NCBI GenBank assembly: GCA_963705595.1
Contig: CAVPKD010000004.1
Location: forward strand, 381,819-445,818
Direction: 5' to 3'
Length of the DNA stretch: 64,000 nucleotides
Origin: Nitrospirota bacterium
GTDB lineage: Bacteria; Nitrospirota; UBA9217
Part shown: positions 1 through 54,216 of the stretch, piece after piece
Position numbering within the stretch: position 1 is the first letter of the stretch
Layout of the letters: the number at the start of each line of letters is the position of its first letter
Translations under genes and position numbers: made by a program
Notes under the pieces: model-generated
Told to the model about the DNA's origin: nothing
What the model saw: only the letters and a program-made list of their open reading frames with translations
Database searches by the model: none

Positions 1-367
1 GGCGAGAACCATCGACGTCCTTATCGTGGACACCGCCGGCAGGCTCCACACAAAATCAAACCTCATGGAAGAGCTGAAGAAGGTGCAACGCATCCTTTCG
101 CGCGAGCTCCCCGGGGCGCCCCATGAAACCCTGCTCGTCCTCGACGGAAACACGGGCCAGAACGCCCTCGTTCAGGCGAAGATGTTCCATGAGGCAGTGG
201 GAGTAACCGGCATCGTGCTTACCAAGCTGGACGGAACATCCAGGGGTGGCATCGTATTCGCGATTAACAAGGAACTCTCCATCCCGGTCAAGTTTATCGG
301 CATCGGAGAGGCGATTGAAGACCTGCGGGAATTTAATTCGAGAGAGTTCGTAGATGCGCTGTTGTGA
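1..367 (+). CDS. ftsY: Signal recognition particle receptor FtsY, 3' part (truncated by window start)
   Basis: SRP GTPase motifs [33 protein letters not shown]. Confidence 0.95.
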
Positions 368-35378: not shown

Positions 35379-36566
35379 ATGAAAAAAGCCATCGCAATGG
35401 CTGCTGTTTGTCTGACATGCATATTCTTCCTCGTTGCATCGCCAGGATTTGCAGAGAGCGGGGTGACAGACGCGCAGATTACGGTCGGGATGTCGACGGT
35501 GCTGACCGGTCCGGCCTCTTTTCTGGGAACCAGTTTCAAGGCTGGCGCAGAAGCTTATCTGAAGATGGTGAATGAGAGCGGAGGTGTGCAAGGAAGAAAG
35601 ATAAAGCTGATCGTGTATGATGACGGATATGAGCCGGGCAGGGCGGTGCCGAATGTTATAAAACTTATAAACGAGGACAAGGTGTTCTGTCTCCTCGGAA
35701 ATGTCGGGACACCGACGACCATGGCGATCAAGCCGATCATTACGCAGGAAAAGGTGCCCCTCTTTGCTCCCTTTACCGGGGCGGAGCCACTCAGGCACCC
35801 TATTGTCAAATATATCCTGAACTACCGGGCCAGTTATAACCAGGAAGCGGAAGAATTCATCAAGGGGATGGTTGATGTGCTCGGCTTCAAAAATATCGGA
35901 GTATTTTTCCAGGATGACGCCTACGGCAGGGTTGTGCTGGAATCGACAAGAATTGCCCTTGAAAAAAGGGGACTGAAACCCATTGTCACGGGGATGTACA
36001 AGAGGAATACGGAAGATATCGGAGAGGGACTTGCGGCGATCATGGCAGGAAAGCCAGAGGCCGTCGTGATGGTAGGGACATACGGGGCATGCGGAAAGTT
36101 CATCCGGGAAGGGAAGCAGAAGGGTTTCAACCCAGTTTACATGAACGTTTCCTTTGTCGGGCCCGATAAGCTTGCGGAACTTCTGGGGAAGGACGGTGAA
36201 GGTGTGGTCGTGACCAACGTGGTGCCGCCGTTCTACGGTGAGACCGGGCAACAATATGCGGGCGCGAAGGAATACGTTGAGTCTTTAAAAAAACATTTTC
36301 CGGGGACGAAACCCAGTTTTGTCGGCTTAGAGGGTTTCCTTGCCACCAAAGTGTTCGTTGAAGGTCTCAAGAGAGCCGGCAGGAACGTGACCCGCGACTC
36401 ATTCATCAGAGCGGTAGAAGGGATCACGGACCTGGACATCGGTGCGGGGAACAGGATAGGCTTTTCGGACGATAACCACCAGGGCTCCCAGAAGATCTAC
36501 CCTACAGTCATAAAAAACGGGAAATATCAATTGATCAAGGATTGGAGTGCTTTGAAACAGCATTAG
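35379..36566 (+). CDS. Periplasmic ligand-binding protein (LivJ-like, type I), no permease nearby
   Basis: Signal peptide; NESGGVQGRKIKLIVYDDGYEP, GNVGTPT, RASYNQE. Confidence 0.85.
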   Translation: MKKAIAMAAVCLTCIFFLVASPGFAESGVTDAQITVGMSTVLTGPASFLGTSFKAGAEAYLKMVNESGGVQGRKIKLIVYDDGYEPGRAVPNVIKLINEDKVFCLLGNVGTPTTMAIKPIITQEKVPLFAPFTGAEPLRHPIVKYILNYRASYNQEAEEFIKGMVDVLGFKNIGVFFQDDAYGRVVLESTRIALEKRGLKPIVTGMYKRNTEDIGEGLAAIMAGKPEAVVMVGTYGACGKFIREGKQKGFNPVYMNVSFVGPDKLAELLGKDGEGVVVTNVVPPFYGETGQQYAGAKEYVESLKKHFPGTKPSFVGLEGFLATKVFVEGLKRAGRNVTRDSFIRAVEGITDLDIGAGNRIGFSDDNHQGSQKIYPTVIKNGKYQLIKDWSALKQH

Positions 36567-36586
36567 CATTCGTGTGGAGGGGGACA

Positions 36587-38521
36587 ATGACGATCCAATA
36601 TAAATTCAAGGCCGTCGGATGGCTCATTGGAGGTGTGCTGTTTGCCGTGACCTTCATTTCCTTACTTACAAACATCTTTCTTGTAAATGCCAACAAGGAG
36701 ATCTATGAGGAATCCACGCGGGGGATTGAAGATATCAGTGTCATCCAGAACCTCCTGAACGATGCGCGCAACAAAGAGGTCCTTGCGGTAAGCTATGCGG
36801 CAGTGGCCAATATGGATAAGTTGGCCAATCTGGAAAAGGAAATTTCCCACCAGCGGGGAGTCCTCTTAGAAAAGCTGTTCGACGTGAACATCGATGCCAA
36901 GTCAAAAGATGATATCAAGAACCTCATAACTAAGTATTTAGAGAGCGCTGCACTGACCTTTGAACACGCAAAGCATTACGTCACCGACGAGGCTGCCAGA
37001 AACATAACCGAGAACTCACGGGTCCCCTTCGATAAGCTGGAAGAGCAGTTCGACCGGTTTATGAACGCTAAGGTCAAATTGGCCGCGGATCAGAATAAAA
37101 AGGCGATCGCCTTTGCGATGATCAGCAAGGTGCTGCTGTTGCTGGCGATGCTCACAGCCGCAGGTCTGGTCGTATTCCTGGTTGTCTTCAGCAGGTCTAT
37201 CCTACAGCCGATTAACACCATGTCCAGATTTGTCAGGGGCATAGCCGAAGGCGATGTGAACAATACCATTAAAATAGATTCCAAGGATGAACTCGGTGCC
37301 ATGGGAAGCGCCCTGATGGATATGAGCTCATATCTTCGTGATATGGCGAGAACGGCAGAGGAGATCGCCGAAGGAGACCTCCGGTCCGGCGTAATGCCGA
37401 AATCCGAAAAGGACGTGCTCGGGAGTTCCTTTCAAAAAATGGTGATTGGCCTGCGGGGCCTGATCGCAGAGATACGGGGAGGTGCGGAGCGGCTGGCAGC
37501 AGCCTCGACACAGATCGCAGCGTCCGCAGACCAAACCTCGAAGAACTCAGAAACATCTGCGAGCGCGGTGGAAGAGATGACGGCTACCATGCACGAAATG
37601 TCTGCGAATATGCAGAACGTTGCGGCAAACACCCAGAAGCAGGCGGCCACGGTAACGTCCACGTCGTCGTCCATTGAGCAGATGGTAGCATCCATCCAAC
37701 TGGTCGCGGAGCATGTAAGGCATCTTGTGTCCATCGCCGAAAAATCAAAGGATGCCGTTGCGGGCGGTGCCGCTGCCGTTGATCAGGCTTCCCAGGGCAT
37801 GAGCGGAATACACGCTGCCATTCAGCAGTCAGCCGAAACGATCACGAGCCTCGGCAGCAAAACGGAAGACATGTCGAAGATCGTTGAAGTGATAGATGAC
37901 ATCGCTGAGCAGACGAACCTCCTTGCCCTGAACGCGGCCATAGAGGCGGCCAAGGCAGGCGATCAGGGGCTCGGATTCGCGGTCGTCGCGGAAGAAGTGA
38001 GGAAACTCGCCGAGCGGTCCGCGCAATCGACGAGGGAGATCGCAGATCTCATCAAGTCCATTGCAAAAGAAGCCCAGAGCTCTGTCGATACTATGACAAA
38101 AAGCACTGGTCTTGTGCGGGAGGGCCTCCGGTTCAGCAAAGAGGTGACCCGTGCTCTTGAAGGCATTCAATCCGCCGTTGAGGACCTCTCGAGATACTCA
38201 AAAGAGATCGGGGCGGCGACCCAGGAGCAGTCAATTGGGTCCGAGCAGATCAGAAAAGCGGTGTCAAACCTGAACGAGATCATTCTGGAGATCAGCTCGG
38301 CATCAGAGCAGCAGTCGATGGGTTCCGGGCAGGTTGTGCAGGCCATCGAACGGGTGAAGGACATGGTCCAGCAGGGCTCTTCCAGCGCTGTTGAACTTGC
38401 AACGTCTGCCGATCAGCTAAGCAGGCAGGCCAGCAGCCTCCAGACACTAGTGGAACGATTTGCGCTGAATGGAAACGGGAAGGCATACCGCGACAGAGAA
38501 CCCCTAACCAGCGCGGCGTAA
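36587..38521 (+). CDS. Methyl-accepting chemotaxis protein (2 TM, 4HB-like sensor, HAMP)
   Basis: IAEQTNLLALNAAIEAAKAGDQGLGFAVVAEEVRKLAERS. Confidence 0.93.
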   Translation: MTIQYKFKAVGWLIGGVLFAVTFISLLTNIFLVNANKEIYEESTRGIEDISVIQNLLNDARNKEVLAVSYAAVANMDKLANLEKEISHQRGVLLEKLFDVNIDAKSKDDIKNLITKYLESAALTFEHAKHYVTDEAARNITENSRVPFDKLEEQFDRFMNAKVKLAADQNKKAIAFAMISKVLLLLAMLTAAGLVVFLVVFSRSILQPINTMSRFVRGIAEGDVNNTIKIDSKDELGAMGSALMDMSSYLRDMARTAEEIAEGDLRSGVMPKSEKDVLGSSFQKMVIGLRGLIAEIRGGAERLAAASTQIAASADQTSKNSETSASAVEEMTATMHEMSANMQNVAANTQKQAATVTSTSSSIEQMVASIQLVAEHVRHLVSIAEKSKDAVAGGAAAVDQASQGMSGIHAAIQQSAETITSLGSKTEDMSKIVEVIDDIAEQTNLLALNAAIEAAKAGDQGLGFAVVAEEVRKLAERSAQSTREIADLIKSIAKEAQSSVDTMTKSTGLVREGLRFSKEVTRALEGIQSAVEDLSRYSKEIGAATQEQSIGSEQIRKAVSNLNEIILEISSASEQQSMGSGQVVQAIERVKDMVQQGSSSAVELATSADQLSRQASSLQTLVERFALNGNGKAYRDREPLTSAA

Positions 38522-38543
38522 GCCGTACTGATACCCCCCCACA

Positions 38544-38583
38544 GAATGAATCTCCCCAAGATTTTTTTTGGGGAGATTCATTC
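38544..38583. terminator. Perfect 16-bp stem hairpin after the MCP gene
   Basis: GAATGAATCTCCCCAA..TTGGGGAGATTCATTC. Confidence 0.65.
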
Positions 38584-38713
38584 CCTCCTTGCAGCATATC
38601 TCAAGGCGCAATTCTCAATTAAGACCATACACCCCGTACTGCTTTCCGAGGCATGAAGCAGCAAAATAGTATTCTTGAAGCTGCTATAGTCTCTTTCTGT
38701 ACTTCCAAATCAT

Positions 38714-38862
38714 TGCCCATGTTTTAGTCAGGTGCCTAAAGACCTATCTGCAAAATATTCCATTCATCGTTTCACTGCACATCTTCTCTCTGAAAACAGA
38801 ACAATAAAATCAGCATGTTATCCTTTTTAGTCTGTCTGCACAAAAATGGCACACCCCTTGCT
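38714..38862 (+). promoter_or_regulatory. sigma54 promoter 1 with tandem NtrC-like boxes and IHF site (porin-amtB-glnK)
   Basis: TGCCCATGTTTTAGTCA (38714) + TGCCTAA (38733); AATCAGCATGTTA (38808); TGGCACACCCCTTGCT (38847). Confidence 0.8.
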
Positions 38863-38988
38863 CTACACTAATGCAGTGAAGTTGTTAAGAGACAGCTTTC
38901 GGAAAGCTTCGGAAGCTTTCATGCATTCAAGCAATACCTGCTCTTGGTTGGGCAGGCATCTCATAGGGGAAGGCATAAGGAGGAGAGA

Positions 38989-40218
38989 ATGAAAAAGATT
39001 GGTACGATTCTTGGTTTGAAACTTGGTCTGGCGATATTCTACGCTGTAGCGGCAATGAGCGCAGCGGCCTTCGCCGAAGATGCGAAGCCGGCCGCGCCGG
39101 CCATAAGCGCCGATGACCTGAAGAAGTCGCTCGGCTTGAGCATCTATCTGCAGGGCGGGTATACGTACAATGGCAATGCCGGCACCGTTGGAGGAGAGTC
39201 GGAGCAGAACGACCTGCGTGTCTTCGATCATAAGGCGAACAGCTTCACGCTGGACCTGGCACAGATCGTGTTCGTCAAGGACCCGGCACTGGGGAATGCC
39301 GGCTACAAGCTGAAGATTTCCGCCGGCGAAACCGCGAAGTGGATCCATTCGCGCGGGCTGAGCGGCGCGCCGCTTACCTCTCCTCAGGCCGGTGAAGGGA
39401 CAGACTCCTTTGACTTGACCGAAGCATACGTCAGCTATAACGGCGCAGTGGGCAAGGGACTGCGGTTCGACTTCGGGAAATTCGTCACCTACAATGGTGC
39501 TGAAGTGATAGAAGCAATAGACAACCCGAACTATTCACGGTCGTTCCTGTTCAACTATGCTATTCCGTTCACGCATACAGGCCTGAGAATGAGCTACGCT
39601 TTCTCTGACGCGGTAAATGCGAGCTTTCATATCGTGAACGGCTGGGACAACAGCACCGACAACAACAAAGCAAAGACCTACGGCTTGAGCATTGGATTTA
39701 CGCCGACAGAGGTTTTCTCTCTGACCGTGAATGGCATGACTGGCCCCGAGCAGGATGAGCAGGGCGCCAATGCTCCGACGGTCGGATCTTCAAGCAGCAA
39801 TACGCGGGCGCTGCTGGACCTTGTTGCTACAATAAAGCCGATAAAACCGCTCTCCATCATCTTGAACTATGATGACGGCAGGGAAGACAATATCCCCGGC
39901 ACGCTGCTCCCCTCGGGCACCTCAGGTGACGCGAAGTGGAGCGGTCTGGCCGGTATCATAAAGTATGATTTCAATGACACGTACAGCCTGGCAGTCCGAG
40001 GTGAGTACTTCGACGACAAGGACGGCTTCAGAACCGGAATGGTACAGAAGCTGAAGGAAGTCACGGTTACACCGGAGATCCGGCTGAACGGAGGCGTGAT
40101 CCTGCGGCCTGAATACCGCCATGATACATCGGACAAGACGTCCTTTGATATTGTGAATGGCGCTGCTACGAAGAAGTCTCAGGATACGCTTGCGCTCGGC
40201 GTGATGTATAGATGGTAA
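38989..40218 (+). CDS. Outer-membrane beta-barrel porin (BBP2/DUF1597-like)
   Basis: Signal peptide; GKFVTYNGAEVIEAIDNPNYSRSFLF..PFTHTG, NGWD, RPEYRHD; terminal YRW. Confidence 0.82.
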   Translation: MKKIGTILGLKLGLAIFYAVAAMSAAAFAEDAKPAAPAISADDLKKSLGLSIYLQGGYTYNGNAGTVGGESEQNDLRVFDHKANSFTLDLAQIVFVKDPALGNAGYKLKISAGETAKWIHSRGLSGAPLTSPQAGEGTDSFDLTEAYVSYNGAVGKGLRFDFGKFVTYNGAEVIEAIDNPNYSRSFLFNYAIPFTHTGLRMSYAFSDAVNASFHIVNGWDNSTDNNKAKTYGLSIGFTPTEVFSLTVNGMTGPEQDEQGANAPTVGSSSSNTRALLDLVATIKPIKPLSIILNYDDGREDNIPGTLLPSGTSGDAKWSGLAGIIKYDFNDTYSLAVRGEYFDDKDGFRTGMVQKLKEVTVTPEIRLNGGVILRPEYRHDTSDKTSFDIVNGAATKKSQDTLALGVMYRW

Positions 40219-40249
40219 GAATTATTCAAGTGAATATAGGAGGTTTATC

Positions 40250-42219
<1,970 letters not shown>

Positions 42220-42260
42220 GAGTCACCCCCATTATCCTCCCTGAATATGAGGGGTACAGC

Positions 42261-42298
42261 GGCGGGCCGGTATGGGTTTTCATGCCGGCCCGTTTTTT
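42261..42298 (+). terminator. Rho-independent terminator
   Basis: GCGGGCCGGTATG..CATGCCGGCCCGT followed by a T run. Confidence 0.85.
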
Positions 42299-42387
42299 AA
42301 CAGCTGCGAACGGATTCATACTTCAATACAAACATGAGTTTTGAATCGTAATTCGCCTCCGGATCTTTGCCCATACGGTATTTTAAG

Positions 42388-42711
42388 ATGACCTATCTCG
42401 CATGGCTTATATTCATCGGCGCGGCAATCCTGGAAGTCGGCGGCGATGCGGTTGTTCGCAAAGGACTTCGCGGAAGTGGCATGCTCGTCATTTTGTCCGG
42501 ATGCGCAATGCTGGGATTGTACGGCGTTGTCGTCAATATGGTGAAATGGGATTTTTCTAAATTGCTCGGGGTCTATGTCGCAGTCTTTGCACTTATCAGC
42601 ATTTTGTTCGGGCGATTCGTGTTTAAAGAGCATATGTCGAATGCGACCTGGCTAGGATTGACGGTTATAATTTGCGGGGCAATGATCATCCAGTTCGGGA
42701 ATAAATCGTAA
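42388..42711 (+). CDS. Small 4-TM SMR/YnfA-like membrane protein
   Basis: AAILEVGGD in TM1, LLGVYVAVF; 107 aa. Confidence 0.7.
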   Translation: MTYLAWLIFIGAAILEVGGDAVVRKGLRGSGMLVILSGCAMLGLYGVVVNMVKWDFSKLLGVYVAVFALISILFGRFVFKEHMSNATWLGLTVIICGAMIIQFGNKS

Positions 42712-42783
42712 TCAGATGACGCTCGAGCATTGAGGCTACGTGTAGCGCATAAGCATCACGGGGGTTTGTACAGGGGAACAATC

Positions 42784-43833
42784 ATGATCACGTATATTCT
42801 GATAGTTGTTTTTCTCATAATACTTCTCTTGCCGCTTCTCATGAAAAAGGTGGAGCATAACCTTGAATTATTCCTGCTTATTATCGGCGGCATTACACTT
42901 ATGCTTTCCCACCTGTTCGGACCTGAACCGTTGCTGAACCTGCGGCTTGTCGAGTCGGCGGCGCTGGAGCCAGTCAAGCTGACCATTGCCACGCTGCTCT
43001 TCGGGCTCATCTTCCGGGCGCTGCGCGAGCCATTGAGAGAAAAGATCGCTGCCGTCGAGATACGGCTCGGACCGCGGCTGTTCGCCTTCCTTCTCATAAT
43101 CGTTCTCGGCGTGATTTCGAGCGTGATCACGGCCATCATAGCAGCGTTGATCCTGTGCGAAGTGGTGGGCGCCATCAATCTCGACAAAAAATATGAGACA
43201 CGTCTCGTTATTTACGCATGCTTTTCGATCGGGATGGGCGCAGCCCTTACTCCCATCGGCGAGCCCCTTTCCACCATTGCCGTCGCCAAACTACGGGGAG
43301 GAGCTCTAGACGGAGATTTCCTGATGCTCCTGCGCATCTTCGGCATCTATATCCTGCCCGGGCTTATCCTCATCTCCCTTGTGGGCGGATTCTTCCGCGG
43401 TACGCAGGTCGAGCGGTCTGAGAGCCTCACCGAAGACATTGCAGAGCCGTTCGGGCATATTGCGCTCCGGGCGTTTAAAGTTTACATCTTCGTCATGGCG
43501 CTCGTGTTGCTGGGCGCGGGTTTTAAACCGCTGATCGACCTGTACATATCCCGTATGCCTGCAACCATTCTCTACTGGGTGAATATCACATCCGCTATCC
43601 TCGATAACGCTACTCTTGCTGCGGCCGAACTCGGCCCTACCATGTCAGCCGCGCAGGTCAAAGGGATCATTATGGGCATAATTATCTCGGGCGGAATGCT
43701 GATACCGGGGAACATTCCGAACATCATCGCCGCGAACAAACTGGGCATATCGAGCAGGGCATGGGCTGTGGTGGGGGTGCCGTTCGGTCTTTTCTTGATG
43801 TTTGTGTACTATGCAGTGCTGTATCTTTTATGA
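42784..43833 (+). CDS. DUF1646-family ion-transporter-like membrane protein
   Basis: VEHNLELFL, GAALTPIGEPLSTI, SAILDNATLAAAE, GGMLIPGNIPNII. Confidence 0.78.
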   Translation: MITYILIVVFLIILLLPLLMKKVEHNLELFLLIIGGITLMLSHLFGPEPLLNLRLVESAALEPVKLTIATLLFGLIFRALREPLREKIAAVEIRLGPRLFAFLLIIVLGVISSVITAIIAALILCEVVGAINLDKKYETRLVIYACFSIGMGAALTPIGEPLSTIAVAKLRGGALDGDFLMLLRIFGIYILPGLILISLVGGFFRGTQVERSESLTEDIAEPFGHIALRAFKVYIFVMALVLLGAGFKPLIDLYISRMPATILYWVNITSAILDNATLAAAELGPTMSAAQVKGIIMGIIISGGMLIPGNIPNIIAANKLGISSRAWAVVGVPFGLFLMFVYYAVLYLL

Positions 43834-43842
43834 TGCCTTCCA

Positions 43843-43989
43843 TGCTTATTTTTCGTTCACATGCCTAAAATAGCATCTCCTGCACAAGTCAAGGCAGCAG
43901 CTCATCCCATGAACGCCTTTAAGATAACCTAATAAAATCAAGAAATTTTGTGAAAAGATCTCCGTCCGAATAGTGGCATGTACATTGCT
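43843..43989 (+). promoter_or_regulatory. sigma54 promoter 2 with NtrC-like boxes and IHF site
   Basis: TGCTTATTTTTCGTTCA (43843) + TGCCTAA (43862); AATCAAGAAATTT (43936); TGGCATGTACATTGCT (43974). Confidence 0.8.
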
Positions 43990-43992
43990 TAA

Positions 43993-44376
<384 letters not shown>

Positions 44377-44418
44377 CGGTACTGATAAAAGATATTCAAT
44401 GATAGGGAGGAATAAGAT

Positions 44419-45765
44419 ATGAAAAAGATGGCTAAGGGAATCGTAGTTATTCTGGTGCTGCTTATAGGAGTGGCAGTGCTTTTGGCGCCGGCCCTGGTAT
44501 CGGCCGAAGAAGCCGCTGCCCCTGCTGCGGCCGCACCTGCACTGGCGCCGAAGATCGACACGGGGGACACGGCATGGATGATCGTGGCCACGGCGATGGT
44601 CATGCTCATGTCCTTGCCTGGGCTTGCTCTCTTCTACGGCGGACTGGCAAAGAGGAAGGATTCGCTCAACACCATGGCCATGACCTTTGTCACGTTCTGC
44701 ATCGTAAGCGTGCTCTGGGTCATCTACGGCTACACCTTTTCGTTCGATACGGACATCAAGGGCATTATCGGAGGAGCATCGAAACTGTTCCTGAAGGGGG
44801 TGGGGCCGAACAGCATCTCCGATCTGGCTAAGACGATCCCTGAGTTTATTTTTATTGTGTATCAACTTACCTTTGCCGCAATTACCGTGGCTCTCGCCAG
44901 CGGCGCATATATCGAGCGCATGAAGTTCTCCGCCTGGATCCTCTTCTCCGTGCTCTGGATGACGATCGTTTATCTTCCAGTGGCACACTGGGTCTGGGGT
45001 AACGGTTTCCTTGCAAAGGCGGGAGCGCTGGACTTTGCAGGCGGTACGGTAGTGCACATCAACGCGGGTATTGCTGCGCTTGTGGGGGCCCTCTTGCTCG
45101 GCAAGCGCCGGGAAAAGGCGATCATACCCAGCAATCTGACGCTCGTCATTACCGGGGCGGGTCTTCTCTGGTTCGGCTGGTTCGGGTTCAACGCTGGTTC
45201 GGCCCTTGCGGCGAGCGGCCTGGCAGGTGCTGCCTTCATCAACACGAACACGGCAACGGCAGTGGCGGCTATTTCGTGGATGATCGTTGAATGGATGCAC
45301 TCCGGCAAGCCGACGGTGCTCGGGCTCGCATCGGGTGCAGTCGGTGGTCTTGTGGCCATTACCCCGGCGGCCGGGTTTGTGAACATCAGCGGCGCTATCA
45401 TTATCGGCATTGCGGCAGGCGTGGTACCTTTCTTTGCCGTGGCCAAGATGAAGCCCATGTTCGGCTATGATGACACGCTCGATGCCTTCGGCATCCACGG
45501 CATCGGCGGGACCATTGGTGCCATCCTGACCGGCGTCTTTGCCGATCCGGCAATCAACGAAGCCGGCAAAGGCCTTTTGTATGGAAATCCGATACAGGTC
45601 TGGATCCAGATCAAAGCAGTTGCAGTCACACTGCTGTATAGTGGCGTGATGACCTTCATCATCTTCATGGTCCTGAAAGCTGTTGTCGGCATACGGGCCG
45701 ATGCCGAGGAAGAATATGTCGGGCTCGATGAAAGCCAGCATGGTGAAAAAGCGTACAATATGTGA
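44419..45765 (+). CDS. amtB: Ammonium transporter copy 2
   Basis: GDTAW, PGLALFYGG, DFAGGTVVH, WFGWFGFN, DDTLDAFGIHG. Confidence 0.95.
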   Translation: MKKMAKGIVVILVLLIGVAVLLAPALVSAEEAAAPAAAAPALAPKIDTGDTAWMIVATAMVMLMSLPGLALFYGGLAKRKDSLNTMAMTFVTFCIVSVLWVIYGYTFSFDTDIKGIIGGASKLFLKGVGPNSISDLAKTIPEFIFIVYQLTFAAITVALASGAYIERMKFSAWILFSVLWMTIVYLPVAHWVWGNGFLAKAGALDFAGGTVVHINAGIAALVGALLLGKRREKAIIPSNLTLVITGAGLLWFGWFGFNAGSALAASGLAGAAFINTNTATAVAAISWMIVEWMHSGKPTVLGLASGAVGGLVAITPAAGFVNISGAIIIGIAAGVVPFFAVAKMKPMFGYDDTLDAFGIHGIGGTIGAILTGVFADPAINEAGKGLLYGNPIQVWIQIKAVAVTLLYSGVMTFIIFMVLKAVVGIRADAEEEYVGLDESQHGEKAYNM

Positions 45766-45844
45766 GAAGTTTGCTGGGAATTTTATCAATGTTATTTTCG
45801 ATGATTCTTTAACGTTTTGATAAAATCAGTCATGCGATGAATTC

Positions 45845-45891
45845 GTGGACAGGCAGATAAATAAGCTGCCTGTCCACTCCTCTTTCTTTTC
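45845..45891 (+). terminator. Terminator after amtB copy 2
   Basis: GTGGACAGGCAG..CTGCCTGTCCAC followed by a pyrimidine/T run. Confidence 0.75.
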
Positions 45892-45918
45892 TGCAAATTC
45901 TCTTCACCTTATAAGTCA

Positions 45919-46066
45919 TGCTCAATTCCTATACACTTGCCTAATATATAATCACAAAACAAACCTCCAAATAACATATGCTCTTTTTTAGCAGACAATT
46001 ATATTAATTAAATCAACAATTTTCATTCAAGGAGAATTATCAATTCCCGGTGGCATATACATTGCT
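45919..46066 (+). promoter_or_regulatory. sigma54 promoter 3 with NtrC-like boxes and IHF site
   Basis: TGCTCAATTCCTATACA (45919) + TGCCTAATATATAATCA (45938); AATCAACAATTTT (46011); TGGCATATACATTGCT (46051). Confidence 0.8.
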
Positions 46067-46126
46067 TATAAAATGTTCACATGCATAAGAGATATGCAAA
46101 GAACATTTCGAATGGAGGTGATAATC

Positions 46127-46465
46127 GTGAAACTGGTCAAGTGCATTATCCAACCGTACCGGCTTGACGAAGTCAAGGAGGCGCTTGCAGGCATCAAGAT
46201 CCAGGGCATGACCGTCTCCGAGGTGAAAGGTTTCGGCAGGCAAAAGGGGCATAAGGAACTCTACCGCGGAGCAGAGTATACCGTGGATTTCGTGCCAAAG
46301 GTCGAGATCGAACTCGTGGTTCAGGACAATCTGGTAAAACAGGTCCTGGACGCAGTAGTTAAAGCGGCCCGGTCCGGCAAAGTAGGCGATGGCAAGATAT
46401 TCGTCATGAACGTGGAGGAGGCAATCCGAATCAGGACTGGCGAGGCCGGAGATGCGGCTTTGTAA
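46127..46465 (+). CDS. glnK: PII nitrogen regulatory protein 3
   Basis: GTG start after GGAGG; highly similar to copy 2; YRGAEY. Confidence 0.95.
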   Translation: MKLVKCIIQPYRLDEVKEALAGIKIQGMTVSEVKGFGRQKGHKELYRGAEYTVDFVPKVEIELVVQDNLVKQVLDAVVKAARSGKVGDGKIFVMNVEEAIRIRTGEAGDAAL

Positions 46466-46605
46466 GGAATATGTTTTACTGCAGGGATCGCTGAGAAGGC
46501 CGAGAGAAAAATTCAAGATTTAAAATTTGAGATTCGAACTCTGCACCCTCCGCGGTGAAAAAATATATATGGGTTTGTCGATAATGATTTAGGGAGAAAT
46601 TCAAT

Positions 46606-47934
46606 ATGATGATCGGCATGAAAAAAATTTTGATGTTCGCTCTGCTGTTGCTCATCGCGGCCGGGTTCCTTCCGGACGTGATCATGGCTGCGGACGCACC
46701 TTCGGCGCTCAAGGTTGATACAGGTGATACGGCATGGATACTGGTTTCGGCAGCACTCGTGATGCTCATGACCCCTGGGCTAGCCATGTTCTACGGCGGT
46801 ATGGTGCGGAGCAAGAACGTGCTCGGCACCATCATGCATAGTTTCATCGCGATTGCGCTGGTGAGCCTCCAGTGGATCCTGTTCGGCTACTCGCTTTCCT
46901 TTGGCCCGGACATCAGGGGGATCATCGGCAGCCTCTCCTGGGCCGGCCTTTCGGGCGTGGGTCTTGCGCCCAACGGGGATTACGCGGCGACGGTTCCACA
47001 TCTCGCGTTCATGGCCTACCAGATGATGTTCGCAGTTATTACCCCTGCACTCATCAGCGGCGCTTTCGCCGAGCGGATGAAGTTCTCGTCCTACCTTCTG
47101 TATATCCTGGCTTGGACGACGGTGGTATATGACCCCGTGGCACACTGGGTCTGGGGAAGCGGTGGGTGGCTCAAGCAGATGGGCGTCCTCGATTTCGCCG
47201 GCGGCATCGTCGTCCATGCCACATCAGGGTTTTCAGCCTTGGCGGCCGCGCTCTACATCGGCAAACGGAAAGGGTTCCTTCAGGAACCTATGCCACCCCA
47301 TGACCTTCCAATGACGGTGCTCGGCGCGGGCCTTCTGTGGTTCGGATGGTTCGGCTTCAACGCGGGGAGCGCTTTATCGTCAGGCGGGCTTGCCACCATG
47401 GCATTCGTCACGACGCATACAGCAGCAGCTTCGGCGACCATCACCTGGATCGCGGTCGAGTGGTATCATCGGGGAAAAGCGACGATGTTCGGCGCAGCGA
47501 CGGGCGCCATTGCCGGTCTTGCCACCATTACGCCGGCAGCAGGCTTCGTAGGGCCGATGCCAGCTCTCCTGATCGGTGTTGCTGCGGGACTGTTGTGCTA
47601 TACTGCGCTGAACGCAAAGACCAAGTTCGGCTACGACGATTCTCTTGACGCCTTCGGCGTGCATGGCGTCGGCGGCAGCCTCGGGACGATCATGGTAGGG
47701 GTCTTCGCTTCCGTTGCGATCAATGCGGGCGGGGCAAACGGTCTGGTCTTCGGAAACTCCCATCAGTTGGCAGTGCAGGCGGGATCGGTTCTCCTGATCG
47801 CGGCGTATTCCTTTGCTGTCAGTATGGTGATCTTCAAGGTCATTGACGCAACGATCGGGCTGCGGGTCAATAAAGATGAAGAGACAGAGGGCCTCGATAT
47901 TAGCCAGCACGGAGAGGCGGGGTATACGCATTAA
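46606..47934 (+). CDS. amtB: Ammonium transporter copy 3
   Basis: GDTAW, PGLAMFYGG, DFAGGIVVH, WFGWFGFN, DDSLDAFGVHG. Confidence 0.95.
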   Translation: MMIGMKKILMFALLLLIAAGFLPDVIMAADAPSALKVDTGDTAWILVSAALVMLMTPGLAMFYGGMVRSKNVLGTIMHSFIAIALVSLQWILFGYSLSFGPDIRGIIGSLSWAGLSGVGLAPNGDYAATVPHLAFMAYQMMFAVITPALISGAFAERMKFSSYLLYILAWTTVVYDPVAHWVWGSGGWLKQMGVLDFAGGIVVHATSGFSALAAALYIGKRKGFLQEPMPPHDLPMTVLGAGLLWFGWFGFNAGSALSSGGLATMAFVTTHTAAASATITWIAVEWYHRGKATMFGAATGAIAGLATITPAAGFVGPMPALLIGVAAGLLCYTALNAKTKFGYDDSLDAFGVHGVGGSLGTIMVGVFASVAINAGGANGLVFGNSHQLAVQAGSVLLIAAYSFAVSMVIFKVIDATIGLRVNKDEETEGLDISQHGEAGYTH

Positions 47935-47968
47935 GAAAATGATGAAACACTGAACAGATAAAGTGGAC

Positions 47969-48001
47969 GGATAGGCAGCATAGGGGCTGTCTATCCTTTT
48001 T
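47969..48001 (+). terminator. Terminator after amtB copy 3
   Basis: GGATAGGCAGC..GCTGTCTATCC followed by TTTTT. Confidence 0.8.
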
Positions 48002-48004
48002 CCC

Positions 48005-48148
48005 TGTTCAGTTGTTAATCACATGCCTAACAATGCGCCAGTAACATTATCCGCAGAGAGAATATTCCTCCCGTATTAATTGTGATCACGAAGGGAATCA
48101 ATTGGTTATCAGATTTCATGCTGCAATTAATATGGCATATGCCTTGCT
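48005..48148 (+). promoter_or_regulatory. sigma54 promoter 4 (complete architecture, no adjacent sense gene)
   Basis: TGTTCAGTTGTTAATCA (48005) + TGCCTAACAATGCGCCA (48024); AATCAATTGGTTA (48096); TGGCATATGCCTTGCT (48133). Confidence 0.72.
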
Positions 48149-48193
48149 TTATAAGTGATGTACAGTCTCCTAATAGCTGGGAATAAAACGGCT

Positions 48194-49069
48194 CTATGGA
48201 TTGTTTTGTGTATTCTGAACGAGTGCGACGCCGGCCAGTATGCCGATGCCCCCGATGATCTGTACAATGGATATTCGCTCTCCGAGAAACAGGGCAGCGA
48301 AGACAACCGCTACGAACGGCACGAAATAATGATAGACGACCGTACGGGTGACGCCGAGCCGCTGCACCCCCTGGTACCAGAGGCTGAAGGCGATGCCCCC
48401 GGAAACGAATGTTGAAAACCCAAATGCCGCCCATGCCTGGACAGACACTCCGCTCCATGATTGGCGGGCCAGTTCACCCAGGCTCATGGGCAGAAGCAGC
48501 AAGCTACCCGTGGCCATGCTGTAGGCAGTGACTTTCACGGCAGAATATTCCTGGAGGAGCGGTTTTGACTTTATGGTGTAGAGCGCCCAGCACACCGATG
48601 CACAGACGGTCAGCAGGTCGCCCGAAAGGTCATGGCGGCTGAAACTGATATCACCAAGGCTGCTCTGTATGATCAGAAAGACCCCGAGAGATGACAGGAG
48701 AATGCCCAGTCCGCTTCGGAATACGATCCGTTCCTTTTTCAATATCCCCTGGATCAAGGCAGCGAAAAGGGGTGACAGAGAGATCAAAAGCGCGGAGTTC
48801 GTGGCGCTCGTAAGCTTGAGTCCGTACATGAACAGGATATTATAGAGCGTGATACCAATAAGGCCGAGCCTAATGAGGGGGCTGATGTCCTTGCGTTCTA
48901 TCCTGAGTGACTCGCCCGTCATGATCAGGACGCAGACAAGGAACAGCGCCGCGAGTGAGAACCGGACAATGGTAAAGCTCAATGGGTAAAAGTCGCGGAG
49001 CGCGTACTTCACAAACGAGAAGTTCACTCCCCAGATAAGGGAGACGAGTATGAGACGGGGGTCGAGCAT
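48194..49069 (-). CDS. EamA/DMT family transporter
   Basis: 10 TM pattern; IWGVNF, SPLFAAL, GDLL, W..GV..LG, FLGE. Confidence 0.88.
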   Translation of the reverse strand: MLDPRLILVSLIWGVNFSFVKYALRDFYPLSFTIVRFSLAALFLVCVLIMTGESLRIERKDISPLIRLGLIGITLYNILFMYGLKLTSATNSALLISLSPLFAALIQGILKKERIVFRSGLGILLSSLGVFLIIQSSLGDISFSRHDLSGDLLTVCASVCWALYTIKSKPLLQEYSAVKVTAYSMATGSLLLLPMSLGELARQSWSGVSVQAWAAFGFSTFVSGGIAFSLWYQGVQRLGVTRTVVYHYFVPFVAVVFAALFLGERISIVQIIGGIGILAGVALVQNTQNNP

Positions 49070-49229
49070 GGCGGTTTGAACTGCAAAGGTCAGAGCGCAA
49101 AGAGCAGAGAGGAGAGCGTGTTAGCTACTCCATGCTCTGTCCCTTTGACCATGCACTATGCCAAGAGTAGCAGTCGCACTATATCATAAATTGACTTGAA
49201 TCATCAAATATATTGTGCTATCAATAAGC

Positions 49230-50350
49230 ATGGACTCTCTTGTGACGAGGATACACGACCTTACCGCGGATATTCTGACCGGTATTGTGGACGGCGTGGT
49301 CGTGACGGATGCACAAGGACTGATTCTCATCTGGAACAGGGCCGCTGAAGAAATGATCGGCATCGCCGCTGCCGAAGCGCTCGGCAAGCATTTCGGTGCC
49401 GTATTTTCCGAGAACACGGCCGTCGTGCGACAGATCGAAAAGACCTTTTCCTCGGGGAGGTCCTATTCCGATTACGAGACAGAACTCGTATCAAAACACC
49501 GGCAGCCGCATCCGGTGGGGCTGGTCACGAGCGTACTCCTTGACAACGGCGGACAGCTGACAGGCGTGATCCTGACGATCCGCGACCAGGCCGGAGTACG
49601 AGACCTCAAGGAACGCATGAGGAGGTCCGACCGTCTCGCGACACTCGGCATGATCGCAGCGGGTATCGCTCACGAGGTTAAGAATCCGCTCGTAGGCATA
49701 CGCGGCGCAGCGCAGCTCATGAAATCCGAGCTAAGCTCGGAGGATGAGGCTGGATCGGCCAAAGGCAGGAGCCTGATAGAATATCTCGACGTGATCCTGA
49801 AGGAAGCGGACCGGCTGAACAAGGTTCTTGAGGGAATTCTCGACTTCACGCGGGTAAAGCCGCGTGAGATGAAGGCGTTCAATATTCACAGCATCCTGGA
49901 CCGCGCTGCTGCTCCTGAACGAGGAGAGCGCGCGGCAGAGCGGCGTCGTCCTCTCGCGGTTGTATGACCCGAGTCTGCCGGACGTGATCGGGAACCAGGA
50001 CCAGCTTATTCAGGTTTTCCTGAACATCATCAAGAACGCGGTCGAGGCCATGCCCGGCGGGGGAAAGCTTACGGTGATCACGAGGATGTCGGATCTGTTC
50101 ACGAGCGTGCAGGCAGACGGCAAGAAACACCGGCTCATGGTCGTGAAGATCAGCGATACCGGCCCAGGCATCAAGCAGGAACATCTTCAGGATATTTTCA
50201 CTCCCTTTTTTACGACCAAGGACCGGGGGGTGGGTCTCGGCCTGGCGCTTTCGTACCAGATCGTGCAGGAACACCTGGGGACGATCCGGGTCGAGAGCCA
50301 GCGAGAACGAAGGCACGACGTTCAGCGTGTATCTTCCGCTGGCGGCGTGA
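49230..50350 (+). CDS. ntrB: PAS sensor histidine kinase NtrB/GlnL-like, frameshifts near 49905 and 50300
   Basis: PAS domain; AHEVKNPLVGIRGAAQL; QVFLNIIKNA, DTGPGI, PFFTTK, GLGL. Confidence 0.85.
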
Positions 50351-50473
50351 AGCGGCATGGAGCATGGCGCAAAGGGCATGGAGCTGGGAGTATGGGATTT
50401 CGGGAATCGAACCAGTGACATCCCGCACTTTGAGCTCTGCCCCATGCTCCGCAAAACGACGAGTGTATCAATT

Positions 50474-51928
<1,455 letters not shown>

Positions 51929-51966
51929 CGTTGTGTGCCACCGTCTCGATTTCATCATATAGCAGG

Positions 51967-51996
51967 TTGGGCTATGCGCATCAGCCCAAATTTTCT
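51967..51996 (+). terminator. Possible terminator after ntrC
   Basis: TTGGGCT..AGCCCAA followed by ATTTT. Confidence 0.5.
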
Positions 51997-52499
51997 CTTG
52001 GCATTCGAGCAAGGTAAGGGATATTGGCTAAGCTACGAATTGTGGATAACACCTGCAAGTGTGCACTCGTAGATAATCCAGATTACTCATAAATGCAGGT
52101 TGAAACATGAAATAGGACGAATTTAATAGCGGGGACGGGTTAAAGCCGTAACGTTCGGGTTAAGAGAGCCAAAAGATAAGCATCTGCAAACCATTGATGG
52201 CGGCTGGTCTCCCCAATATTAAATCTCTTTCAACAAATCTGCGCTTTCTATCTTTCCCAGCAAACAAAGATCTCCTCTTGTCTCTCCTCATGAGGTGAGC
52301 GCATAAAGGGGCACAGCCCCAGTCAGTCCATTCGGTTGTGCATGACCCGCTTCTTCGAAGTGTGGTCTTGACTACCCTTGTGTTATTGTTTATACTTGAT
52401 ATCGTTGAAGCGTGGACCGTCAAGCTATTTCGGTATCATCTAGATATTGGTGGATTAGGTTTGTCTTGTCCAAATATAAAAGACGAAGGGAGACAATGA

Positions 52500-52682
52500 A
52501 TGATTAACAAAAATAACATGCCTATTTGTGAAGCAGCAAATTATTTTAAGGAAGAGATTCTTCAAATTATGCCAGATATACCTGTAAGCCAACTCGCTGA
52601 CATGGTGTCATTATATATTTATTATCAATATGGCATTACCAAAGAAGAAGCGAAGAAAGTTATTGAAACAACCTGTTTATGA
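52500..52682 (+). CDS. Hypothetical 60-aa low-GC protein
   Basis: Purine-rich RBS (GAAGGGGAG); plausible helical composition; no family recognised. Confidence 0.5.
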   Translation: MINKNNMPICEAANYFKEEILQIMPDIPVSQLADMVSLYIYYQYGITKEEAKKVIETTCL

Positions 52683-52977
52683 GAACCTAGATTGGCCAAA
52701 CTTCATGGTATCTCAGCATGGCATTTTTGAATGACATTTTCAAGGTCGAAGCCGACAACTCTGGCATGAAACATTGGTGTTTCAAGGACTGAAAACTGCT
52801 TGAGTTTTAAGCAGAAGCTGACATTCCATGTTTCAATCAAGAGTCTCCACTTCTGTTTGATGCTGGCCTCAGTGCAGTACATCTACATTTCTGCAATGTC
52901 AATTATATGACAGATGTAGCGGAGAAAACCAACGATCAGAATCGAGATGCAACTCTGAGTGCTCCGCCCTCCGCGAG

Positions 52978-54216
52978 TCACTTTCTATCCGTTTTTATAT
53001 CCCACATCTCACCTGAATACATATCGCCGAAGGCGTCTTCATAGAGCTTGATAAGCTCGGCGCGGTATCCCTCGTCGATCTTGACCGCCTTCTTGGCGTA
53101 CGAGGCGCACCAGCCGCAGGTGCCGCAGTCGGTAGAGCGACAGTCCCTATCCTTGAAGCCGGGAATGAAACCGGTCAATTTACTGTTGTCGATATAGACG
53201 GGCTCGCCCTCAAGGGGTGCAAGCATCCCGCGTCTTGTTGCGAGCTTCTTGAGCTTCATGAATTTTGACAATCGGACCATGCGCGGTCTGAACAGATACT
53301 TCCACTTGTTGAACAGGCCTTCCGAAAGGGACGCATCGCTTTTCTCTTTGTACCCGAAGGGTTGTATGAGATCAAGGAGGTTCCCGTCGTACCGACCCTC
53401 GGAGTAGGCTTTTACCCTCCTGGTCAATACCGGTGTGGGTGCGCCCCTTTCCAATACTTTGAAGGAGTCGTAGCCCATGTCGAGGTAAAGACCCAAATCC
53501 TCCGGTCTAATGAAATCAGAGCGAAGGTAATGAACAGGGTCTTTCAGCTTGTCGTACGAACACCTCATCACGCACCAGTCTATCATGAAACCCCGCGTTG
53601 GGTGCCCCTTCTGCGAGGCATGCGAAAGGTTCACCATGTGCTGGCCGGAAAGCGGGCAGAAAAGCTGGCAATTGGCGTTCACGATGAGCTGCAGCTCTAT
53701 CTTGAGTGCCTTCCGCAGAGCCGTGAGAAGTCCGAAGTCACGGTTCACGCTGAGCGGCTCAAGGGTTATGCAATCAGCCCCGCCGTCCTCCCAGAACCTT
53801 GCTTTGGCTATCCCGTCAACCCTGGCGTAGACGCCCACCCTCACCTTTAGCCCCGGATGGCGTCTCTTTATAATGGGCAACAGAAAGGGGAGCGATATCG
53901 TGACCGCACTCACCCCGGCGCTCTCGATGTACTCCAAGAGCGCCTCGATCTCCCTCTGTCCCTGCTTGGCGTACTCACGGTTGTCCATACATGCAGCGTT
54001 CAGGAGATAGTTGAAACCCATGCCCTTTGATCTGGCCGCTTGTACGTGGCGCTCGAACCAACTGCGCGAGAGCGGTGGCAGAGTAAAAGAGGCCCTGCCT
54101 CCGCCCACCGGATCAGCGGACAGTTTGCCGAAGACTTCTGTGACCGGATATGCCGCAATGTCGTCTAGGAGGCCGTTATCGAAATTGGTCGCGACCGACA
54201 AGCTGAATTTCTTCAC
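52978..54216 (-). CDS. Peptidase U32-family (UbiU/UbiV/RlhA-like Fe-S) protein
   Basis: GGGRAS, FNYLLNAAC, NRDF, NANCQLFCP..H, WCVMRC, FIRPED, FKVLER; C-terminal CRSTDCGTCGWC. Confidence 0.85.
   Translation of the reverse strand: MKKFSLSVATNFDNGLLDDIAAYPVTEVFGKLSADPVGGGRASFTLPPLSRSWFERHVQAARSKGMGFNYLLNAACMDNREYAKQGQREIEALLEYIESAGVSAVTISLPFLLPIIKRRHPGLKVRVGVYARVDGIAKARFWEDGGADCITLEPLSVNRDFGLLTALRKALKIELQLIVNANCQLFCPLSGQHMVNLSHASQKGHPTRGFMIDWCVMRCSYDKLKDPVHYLRSDFIRPEDLGLYLDMGYDSFKVLERGAPTPVLTRRVKAYSEGRYDGNLLDLIQPFGYKEKSDASLSEGLFNKWKYLFRPRMVRLSKFMKLKKLATRRGMLAPLEGEPVYIDNSKLTGFIPGFKDRDCRSTDCGTCGWCASYAKKAVKIDEGYRAELIKLYEDAFGDMYSGEMWDIKTDRK

Follow-up and report, generated by a model that had tools for sequence, protein, structure and literature searches.

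That ntrBC is positively autoregulated by way of a sigma54 promoter is textbook knowledge, and the glnALG operon carries an internal sigma70 promoter, glnLp. Activation of the glnALG operon by NtrBC has been described (bioRxiv 10.1101/2022.07.25.501400). An excludon is a long antisense RNA that doubles as the mRNA of a divergent neighbor (Listeria; PMC12288877, PMC4591121). In E. coli, sigma54 promoters yield mRNAs with 5' untranslated regions of 360–760 nt (Bonocora et al. 2015, PMC4591121), and antisense sigma54 sites have been discussed as possible excludon-like regulators, a role that was proposed and not demonstrated (PMC4591121). In Nostoc sp. PCC 7120, nitrogen deficiency induces antisense RNAs (PMC10287535). 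For Nitrospirota, our literature search returned no work on control by NtrC or sigma54. Herein, we analyzed a 64,000-nt stretch of DNA (the window) from an uncultured Nitrospirota bacterium (assembly GCA_963705595.1, contig CAVPKD010000004.1, positions 381,819–445,818). It holds a sigma54 promoter, P4, that points into the oppositely oriented transporter gene eamA, with ntrB and ntrC beyond it. We propose, with a probability of roughly 55%, that P4 serves ntrBC as a glnAp2-like distal promoter, dependent on NtrC and sigma54, with an excludon-type transcript. Because eamA is opposed and lies between P4 and ntrB, this transcript would have to cross eamA in antisense.

P4 is one of four TGGCAY-N5-TTGCT elements in the window, located at 38847, 43974, 46051, and 48133 (P1–P4). 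Its −24/−12 element, TGGCATATGCCTTGCT, agrees with TGGCAC-N5-TTGCW at 11/11 specified positions, a score reached by none of 200 shuffled sequences. The presumed NtrC site consists of box 1 (TGTTCAG, 48005–48011) and box 2 (TCACATGCCTAA, 48019–48030), whose TG starts are 19 nt apart. The sequence TGCCTAA (48024–48030) stands 109 nt ahead of the −24/−12 element. At an equal 19-nt offset, the first boxes of P1–P3 read TGCCCAT, TGCTTAT, and TGCTCAA; that of P4 begins with TGT, unlike the TGC of the other three. The 12-mer TCASRTGCYTAA starts 114–119 nt before TGGCA in P1–P4 and in the promoters of 10 relatives, matching at 12/12 positions in P1, P2, and P4 and at 10/12 in P3. Also common to P1–P4 is an AATCAA site 37–40 nt upstream of the −24 element. 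This integration host factor (IHF)-like site of P4, AATCAATTGGTTA, matches WATCAANNNNTTR at 9/9 specified positions, and those of P1–P3 match at 8/9.

The original prediction had credited P4 with the parts and spacing of the three promoters driving amt/glnK units, with a consensus IHF site, with a place downstream of the amtB3 terminator, and with a start about 35 nt from the eamA stop codon and about 1.07 kb from ntrB. These points were confirmed, with every element at its place, the TGT of box 1 as the one nuance, and a terminator at 47969–47996. Taking C48147 as the −12 position gives a predicted start at about 48159, which lies 35 nt short of the eamA stop codon (48194–48196, minus strand) and leaves 1071 nt to the ntrB ATG (49230).

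The window holds nine TGGC-N7-TTGC sites, where 3.04 would be expected. For TGCCTAA by itself there is no enrichment (seven copies, 5.37 expected), but four of the seven sit 109–114 nt ahead of the four TGGCAY-N5-TTGCT sites. Across the genome (G000; 3.6 Mb), the strict motif TGGCAY-N5-TTGCW was found 16 times against about 6.8 expected from composition; among these 16, only P1–P4 have TGCYTAA 109–114 nt upstream. P4 has its activator box in common with the bona fide nitrogen genes glnK and amtB behind P1–P3.

Relatives were drawn from 64 genomes of one family, and the order level comprises the same 64. The family is known solely as metagenome-assembled genomes, as judged from record titles. 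Orthologues of eamA were found in 45 of them, nearly always in the order amt (forward), eamA (reverse), ntrB (forward). An 11/11 sigma54 motif just past the eamA stop codon and pointing into eamA is present in 10 of the 45: G000 and G002 (genus g1, the genus of the window), G006 (g4), G008, G023, and G065 (g6), G041, G043, and G044 (g8), and G017 (g15). With G064 (g6), whose motif scores 10/11 and predicts a start 4 nt from the eamA stop, the promoter is found in 11/45 genomes and five genera. Predicted starts lie 14–80 nt from the eamA stop in the ten 11/11 genomes and 4–80 nt when G064 is included. The other 34 eamA-bearing genomes score 6–9, as shuffled sequences do. Conservation of the promoter in relatives, a check named in the original prediction, holds for these 11 genomes and not for the 34 at chance level. 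The original prediction would have been undone by relatives with a sense gene here that the window had lost; none of the relatives carries a sense gene in the stretch from the promoter to eamA.

Two further genomes of the window's genus, G001 and G003, gave no match to eamA (E ≤ 1e-40) or ntrB (E ≤ 1e-45) with the window proteins as queries; G001 is rated 99% complete, and in both congeners the locus may be absent or strongly diverged.

Conservation within the promoter follows its functional blocks. Between G000 and G002, identical columns number 30/39 in the boxes, 22/27 around the IHF-like site, and 24/27 around the −24/−12 element, against 21/51 in the spacer. Four parts are invariant in five distinct g1 lineages from metagenomes, whose identity to G000 is 66–90% here: box 1, box 2, AATCAA..GTT, and the −24/−12 element. 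These comparisons support P4 as a real sigma54 promoter under selection. They also indicate which neighbor it accompanies. In G041, G043, and G044, superoxide dismutase and rubrerythrin genes on the minus strand lie upstream of the promoter and no amt is present, and in G008 amt and the promoter are set apart by an insert of 1 kb. Because of these g8 genomes and the G008 insert, the promoter goes with the eamA–ntrB side and not with amt.

Loci without eamA supply the decisive comparison. Of the 54 genomes with ntrB, 10 have no eamA match, and the upstream region is readable in nine of these (in G020, ntrB stands at the contig start). Four of the nine have a perfect sigma54 motif aimed at ntrB, 128–417 nt before its ATG (Table 1). 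In G010, 53 codons from the 3' end of eamA survive as a remnant between motif and ntrB, and in G014 the motif directly follows an amtB3 orthologue. No sigma54 motif precedes ntrB in the remaining five: amt runs straight on to ntrB in G050 and G052, a terminator follows amt in G016 and G011, and G067 has another neighbor. Of loci with eamA, 33/43 have an intact −10 element for this gene (TATAGT; plus strand ACTATA), against 0/9 loci without eamA. By this comparison the eamA −10 decays after gene loss, whereas the sigma54 motif stays perfect in four eamA-less loci. Metagenome contigs collected by an NtrB search gave a similar picture: 15/45 classifiable loci with eamA have an 11/11 motif past the eamA stop, 3/9 without eamA have one 128–202 nt before ntrB, and every other classifiable locus scores at most 9. 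An intervening contig end left 18 metagenome loci unclassifiable, and this sample overlaps the genomes (e.g., L082 = L003) and is not independent of them. Because the promoter is kept directly before ntrB in 4/9 genome and 3/9 metagenome loci lacking eamA, the comparison supports ntrBC as its conserved partner.

The spacer between eamA and ntrB holds two presumed sigma70-type promoters, back to back (Table 1). Across the family, the element before ntrB reads ACTATAYCATRAATT-NN-CTTGAATACTCAAATATATTGTGCTATCAAT-N5-ATG; TTGAAT-17-TATMWA-5..7-ATG is present in 50/52 loci, and the element is 82–90% identical across genera. Because the ATG stands 6–7 nt past the −10 and no Shine–Dalgarno sequence precedes it, ntrB is probably leaderless. 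On the eamA side, relatives show TTGAGT as the −35 (in the window, TTGATG) and, past a spacer of 18 nt, TATAGT. The −35 hexamers of the two genes overlap as a palindrome in 47/52 loci (TTGAATACTCAA in most relatives). A sigma54 motif within this spacer was found in 0/43 loci.

The genome encodes RpoN (TIGR02395, 443.7 bits; cutoff 277.35) and an IHF-alpha homologue (122.8 bits; cutoff 120.25), and the ntrC product passes the TIGR01818 equivalog cutoff (567.3 against 558.6 bits). From about 25 full-length sigma54 activators in the genome (33 matches when fragments are included), we infer that NtrC is the one acting at P4. Under nitrogen limitation, NtrC~P would bind the paired boxes (48005–48030), IHF would bend the DNA at 48096–48108, and the waiting sigma54-RNA polymerase (48133–48148) would initiate at about 48159. 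Transcription would pass the whole of the oppositely oriented eamA in antisense, cross the back-to-back sigma70-type promoters (49178–49224), and enter ntrB and ntrC. The expected outcome is positive autoregulation of ntrBC, comparable to what enterobacteria obtain for glnA-ntrBC from glnAp2; the basal level would come from the sigma70-type promoter close to ntrB (49196–49224). Expression of eamA would be expected to go down concurrently, opposed by both the transcript and the act of transcription, as excludon geometry implies.

The locus has the layout of both models: a sigma54 promoter 1071 nt upstream on the ntrBC strand together with a proximal sigma70-type one, as with glnAp2, and a predicted P4 transcript antisense to eamA on the same strand as the divergent ntrB, as in an excludon. 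The RNA start at about 48159 is a prediction from the motif. None of 22 listed sequencing runs with the locus was an RNA run, and two nanopore metatranscriptomes from the study behind one of the DNA runs, one of them from its very sample, gave no matching records. Read-through to ntrBC is suggested by the lack of terminators and by comparative retention, while translation of ntrB from the long RNA and repression of eamA by the P4 transcript are presumed. The original prediction of a noncontiguous ntrBC operon running through eamA gains from the retention of the promoter by ntrB after eamA is gone, but is weakened by the promoter that ntrB has of its own and by the 34/45 genomes without a P4-like promoter.

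Several observations weigh against P4 as a distal promoter of ntrBC. The proximal ntrB promoter is conserved in 50/52 loci, and a leaderless mRNA may be the main source of NtrB, with a long read-through RNA being translated poorly. An untranslated RNA of 1.07 kb is a likely target of Rho termination, and transcription from P4 would meet that of eamA head-on. The upstream box is poor in g4 and g6, with 8–10/12 positions in G006, G008, G023, and G064 (in G065 the contig ends before the box, which was left unscored). Promoter absence extends to 34/45 eamA-bearing and 5/9 eamA-less loci; thus, ntrBC can do without it. On a quick EamA tree, from which five short or interrupted rows were dropped (G008, G042, G019, G053, and G058), at least 4–5 gains or losses of the promoter are needed. 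G010 and G041 are close relatives, so G010 may have lost eamA, and kept the promoter without it, only recently.

The state of ntrB in the window raises a further objection. The gene is split into two open reading frames (49215–49967 and 49960–50418), with its end in a third frame. Contigs of a strain about 98.5% identical, from two studies, have one base fewer at 49908 and at 50304, and in the ntrB–ntrC spacer they have an extra CT after 50450. The open frame of ntrB measures 255 amino acids in the window against 354–427 in relatives whose match lies inside a contig. Two more sigma54-activator genes of G000 are found by Pfam in 2–3 adjacent pieces (C1:151605-152106 and C8:46353-46849), which fits widespread insertion/deletion errors in this assembly. 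Because the frame is intact in relatives, other activator genes are in pieces, and the genome has 10 contigs but an estimated completeness of only 77.9%, the ntrB frameshifts are most likely assembly errors. If they are real, this strain would have no working feedback loop.

The main rival to a distal ntrBC promoter is a dedicated cis-antisense or interference promoter that silences only eamA under nitrogen limitation, its RNA ending before ntrB, for instance at Rho. Starts predicted 4–80 nt from the eamA stop in 11/45 genomes would make this RNA fully antisense, and ntrB has its own conserved promoter and an apparently leaderless start. Promoter-less genomes lend a similar hint: in 34 of the 35 that bear eamA and lack an 11/11 motif, a co-oriented amt or glnK ends a median of 72 nt (range 12–492) from the eamA stop, and nitrogen-driven convergent transcription onto eamA may be a general theme. 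Silencing of eamA does not, however, account for a promoter and box kept by ntrB in 4/9 genome and 3/9 metagenome loci with no eamA to silence, nor is there a conserved terminator inside eamA. Plus-strand terminators antisense to eamA show no excess (9 in 9.4 kb of promoter-bearing loci against 40 in 33.9 kb of the others), and no terminator-like site within eamA occupies a conserved position. We regard this antisense-only role as a real but distinctly less probable explanation. A nonfunctional relic, the promoter of a glnK-amt unit that was deleted or never fully duplicated, would explain why P4 is built like P1–P3 and why the promoter is patchily distributed in the family. A product of such a deletion can be seen in G057 (L048, ~1117–1486), where a sigma54 promoter with upstream box is followed by a Shine–Dalgarno sequence, a decayed amt remnant (54% identity over ~39 residues), and then the eamA stop, 369 nt from the promoter. 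Deletion of most of amt can thus be enough to produce an orphan sigma54 promoter, which also counts against a dedicated ntrBC promoter. Tandem duplication, suggested as the source of such a relic in the original prediction, is plausible as an origin, but a relic hardly describes the present state: motif scores are bimodal (11/11 in 10 genomes, 10/11 in one, 6–9 in 34) without graded stages of decay in between, spacers have diverged around conserved functional blocks, the g8 promoter has a different upstream context, and the motif is intact where eamA's own −10 has decayed. We consider a relic improbable.

Products encoded just downstream of P4 fare worse. A short trans-acting small RNA (sRNA) made from the 35-nt spacer and the eamA 3' end has a precedent in the sigma54-dependent sRNAs of other bacteria, and G000 offers a weak hairpin (−9.1 kcal/mol) followed by TTTTGTGT, ending near 48205. 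This hairpin was not found in G002, G008, G065, or G017, an Rfam search of 36000–54000 at E ≤ 1 returned no match, and the transcribed spacer is poorly conserved (25/42 columns identical between G000 and G002). The anti-Shine–Dalgarno motif TCTCCT, on which the earlier sRNA proposal had leaned, occurs only in g1-like sequences and is absent from other genera. With no defined 3' end, no conserved sequence or structure, and no known family found after P4, an sRNA is very unlikely. Hardly credible is a leaderless or small open reading frame. The frame of 86 amino acids in G000 (GTG 48155/ATG 48158) does begin at the predicted start and overlaps eamA in antisense. In the nearest relative, G002 (EamA 80% identical), no plus-strand frame of at least 25 amino acids starts within ~75 nt of the predicted start, and none is common to the 11 promoter-bearing genomes except one of 27–29 amino acids, which lacks a Shine–Dalgarno sequence and is a by-product of the conserved eamA coding sequence. 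Non-conservation among relatives speaks against the 48155/48158 frame.

A more ambitious version of the ntrBC reading joins feedback and silencing in a nitrogen excludon, where one NtrC/sigma54 transcript amplifies ntrBC and silences eamA, the shared palindromic −35 (TTGAATACTCAA) lets only eamA or leaderless ntrB fire at a time, and sigma54-driven amtB read-through does the same job where a P4-like promoter is missing. Taken jointly, these components remain speculative, and we hold the whole only tentatively. Read-through from amt could replace P4 in promoter-less genomes: at the four loci where the region upstream of the co-oriented amt/glnK unit is visible, that unit has a sigma54 motif of its own. 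A rough terminator scan of the amt–eamA gap of promoter-less genomes gave a plus-strand candidate in 9/34, from which we draw no claim on read-through. If this version is true, nitrogen-driven antisense transcription of eamA would be a trait of the whole family.

The features of the locus are listed in Table 1. In the window, the amtB3 terminator, conserved in G002 and in g1 metagenome loci, insulates P4 from the upstream glnK-amtB3 unit. The best NCBIfam matches of eamA are 2A78 and YddG, all below their cutoffs.

Table 1. Features of the window and of eamA-less relatives (g labels denote genera)
Feature	Position	Strand	Description
First nitrogen unit	38944-42219		BBP2 porin + amt + glnK (Pfam, sequence)
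YnfA and DUF1646 genes	between first and second nitrogen units		
Second nitrogen unit	44038-45765		glnK-amt
Third nitrogen unit	46073-47934		glnK-amt (amtB3)
amtB3 intrinsic terminator	47969..47996	+	stem-loop of 11 pairs (6 GC), then TTTTT
P4 upstream activator region, presumed NtrC site	48005..48030	+	box 1 + box 2
P4 IHF-like site	48096..48108	+	AATCAATTGGTTA (AATCAA-N4-TTA)
P4 sigma54 −24/−12 element	48133..48148	+	TGGCATATGCCTTGCT
Predicted untranslated transcript	48159..49229	+	antisense to whole eamA, up to ntrB start; extent inferred
eamA	48194..49069	−	DMT-family transporter, 291 amino acids; Pfam EamA 1.6e-51
Presumed eamA sigma70-type promoter	49178..49207	−	−35 TTGATG, 18-nt spacer, −10 TATAGT (49183-49178)
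Presumed ntrB sigma70-type promoter	49196..49232	+	−35 TTGAAT (49196-49201), 17-nt spacer, TG-extended −10 TATCAA (49219-49224), ATG 49230
ntrB	49230..50350	+	PAS, HisKA, HATPase_c; frame interrupted by single-base insertions at two sites (near 49908 and 50304)
ntrC	50474..51928	+	REC, sigma54-interaction AAA+, HTH_8
G074 (g11), sigma54 motif	200 nt before ntrB ATG		upstream box 12/12
G014 (g12), sigma54 motif	128 nt before ntrB ATG		directly after amtB3 orthologue; box 10/12
G024 (g8), sigma54 motif	159 nt before ntrB ATG		box 12/12
G010 (g8), sigma54 motif	417 nt before ntrB ATG		box 12/12; 53-codon eamA 3'-end remnant between

Some further observations concern the neighboring genes and spacers. 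In the first nitrogen unit (38847–42219, counted from P1), an OmpL-like BBP2 porin gene precedes amt-glnK, and genes for YnfA/UPF0060 and for a DUF1646 membrane protein occupy 42367–43833, between the first and second units. The glnK frame of the third unit is listed from ATG 46073 (46073–46465, 130 amino acids); its P-II profile match begins at residue 20, and the true start is probably a GTG near 46127, preceded by GGAGGTG. The start of ntrC (ATG 50474; region 50460–50476) has no Shine–Dalgarno sequence and is preceded by TGTATCAATT, like the −10 region before ntrB. Between ntrB and ntrC (50351–50473), heptamer-like repeats (GCATGGR/GCGCATGG) are arranged as an inverted repeat. Many relatives have (AATCCGC/AATCCGA)n in the stretch from the eamA start to the shared promoter, and repeats of a similar kind stand beside terminators; read in the sense of the eamA mRNA, such runs amount to a series of GGA motifs.

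If P4 does drive ntrBC, the locus would be a natural case of a sigma54 promoter feeding back on its own activator's operon across an opposed gene, with glnAp2-type autoregulation and an excludon joined in one system. Annotated "orphan" sigma54 promoters could then be assigned to distant targets through relatives without the intervening gene. An uncharacterised DMT transporter would be linked to nitrogen status, hinting at a nitrogen-rich substrate whose export is stopped in starvation. The conserved, probably leaderless ntrB start with its shared palindromic −35 would add a second regulatory device.

Relative to described systems, the locus resembles glnAp2/glnALG of E. coli and Salmonella in having a distal, NtrC-activated sigma54 promoter and a proximal sigma70-type one before ntrB. 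In glnALG, however, the intervening glnA is read in sense and is itself the main product, whereas here the intervening gene is an opposed DMT transporter and the predicted leader is a 1.07-kb antisense RNA. As in an excludon, one transcript, here a predicted one, would be antisense to one gene and mRNA for its divergent neighbor, with mutually exclusive expression expected. Unlike the Listeria case, this promoter is enhancer-dependent, uses sigma54, and would be controlled by the regulator that it would express. The "outside antisense" and intragenic sigma54 sites of E. coli are alike in lying far from, or antisense to, the nearest gene (PMC4591121). Compared with those sites as described there, P4 has complete activator and IHF sites in common with glnK/amt promoters, a longer and wholly antisense leader, and an arrangement conserved across genera. 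The nitrogen-responsive antisense RNAs of Nostoc sp. PCC 7120 differ in being cyanobacterial, in a setting without sigma54, and apparently without feedback on the regulator's own operon (PMC10287535). What appears new at this locus is thus a combination of known kinds of control, supported by comparative genomics in uncultured organisms.

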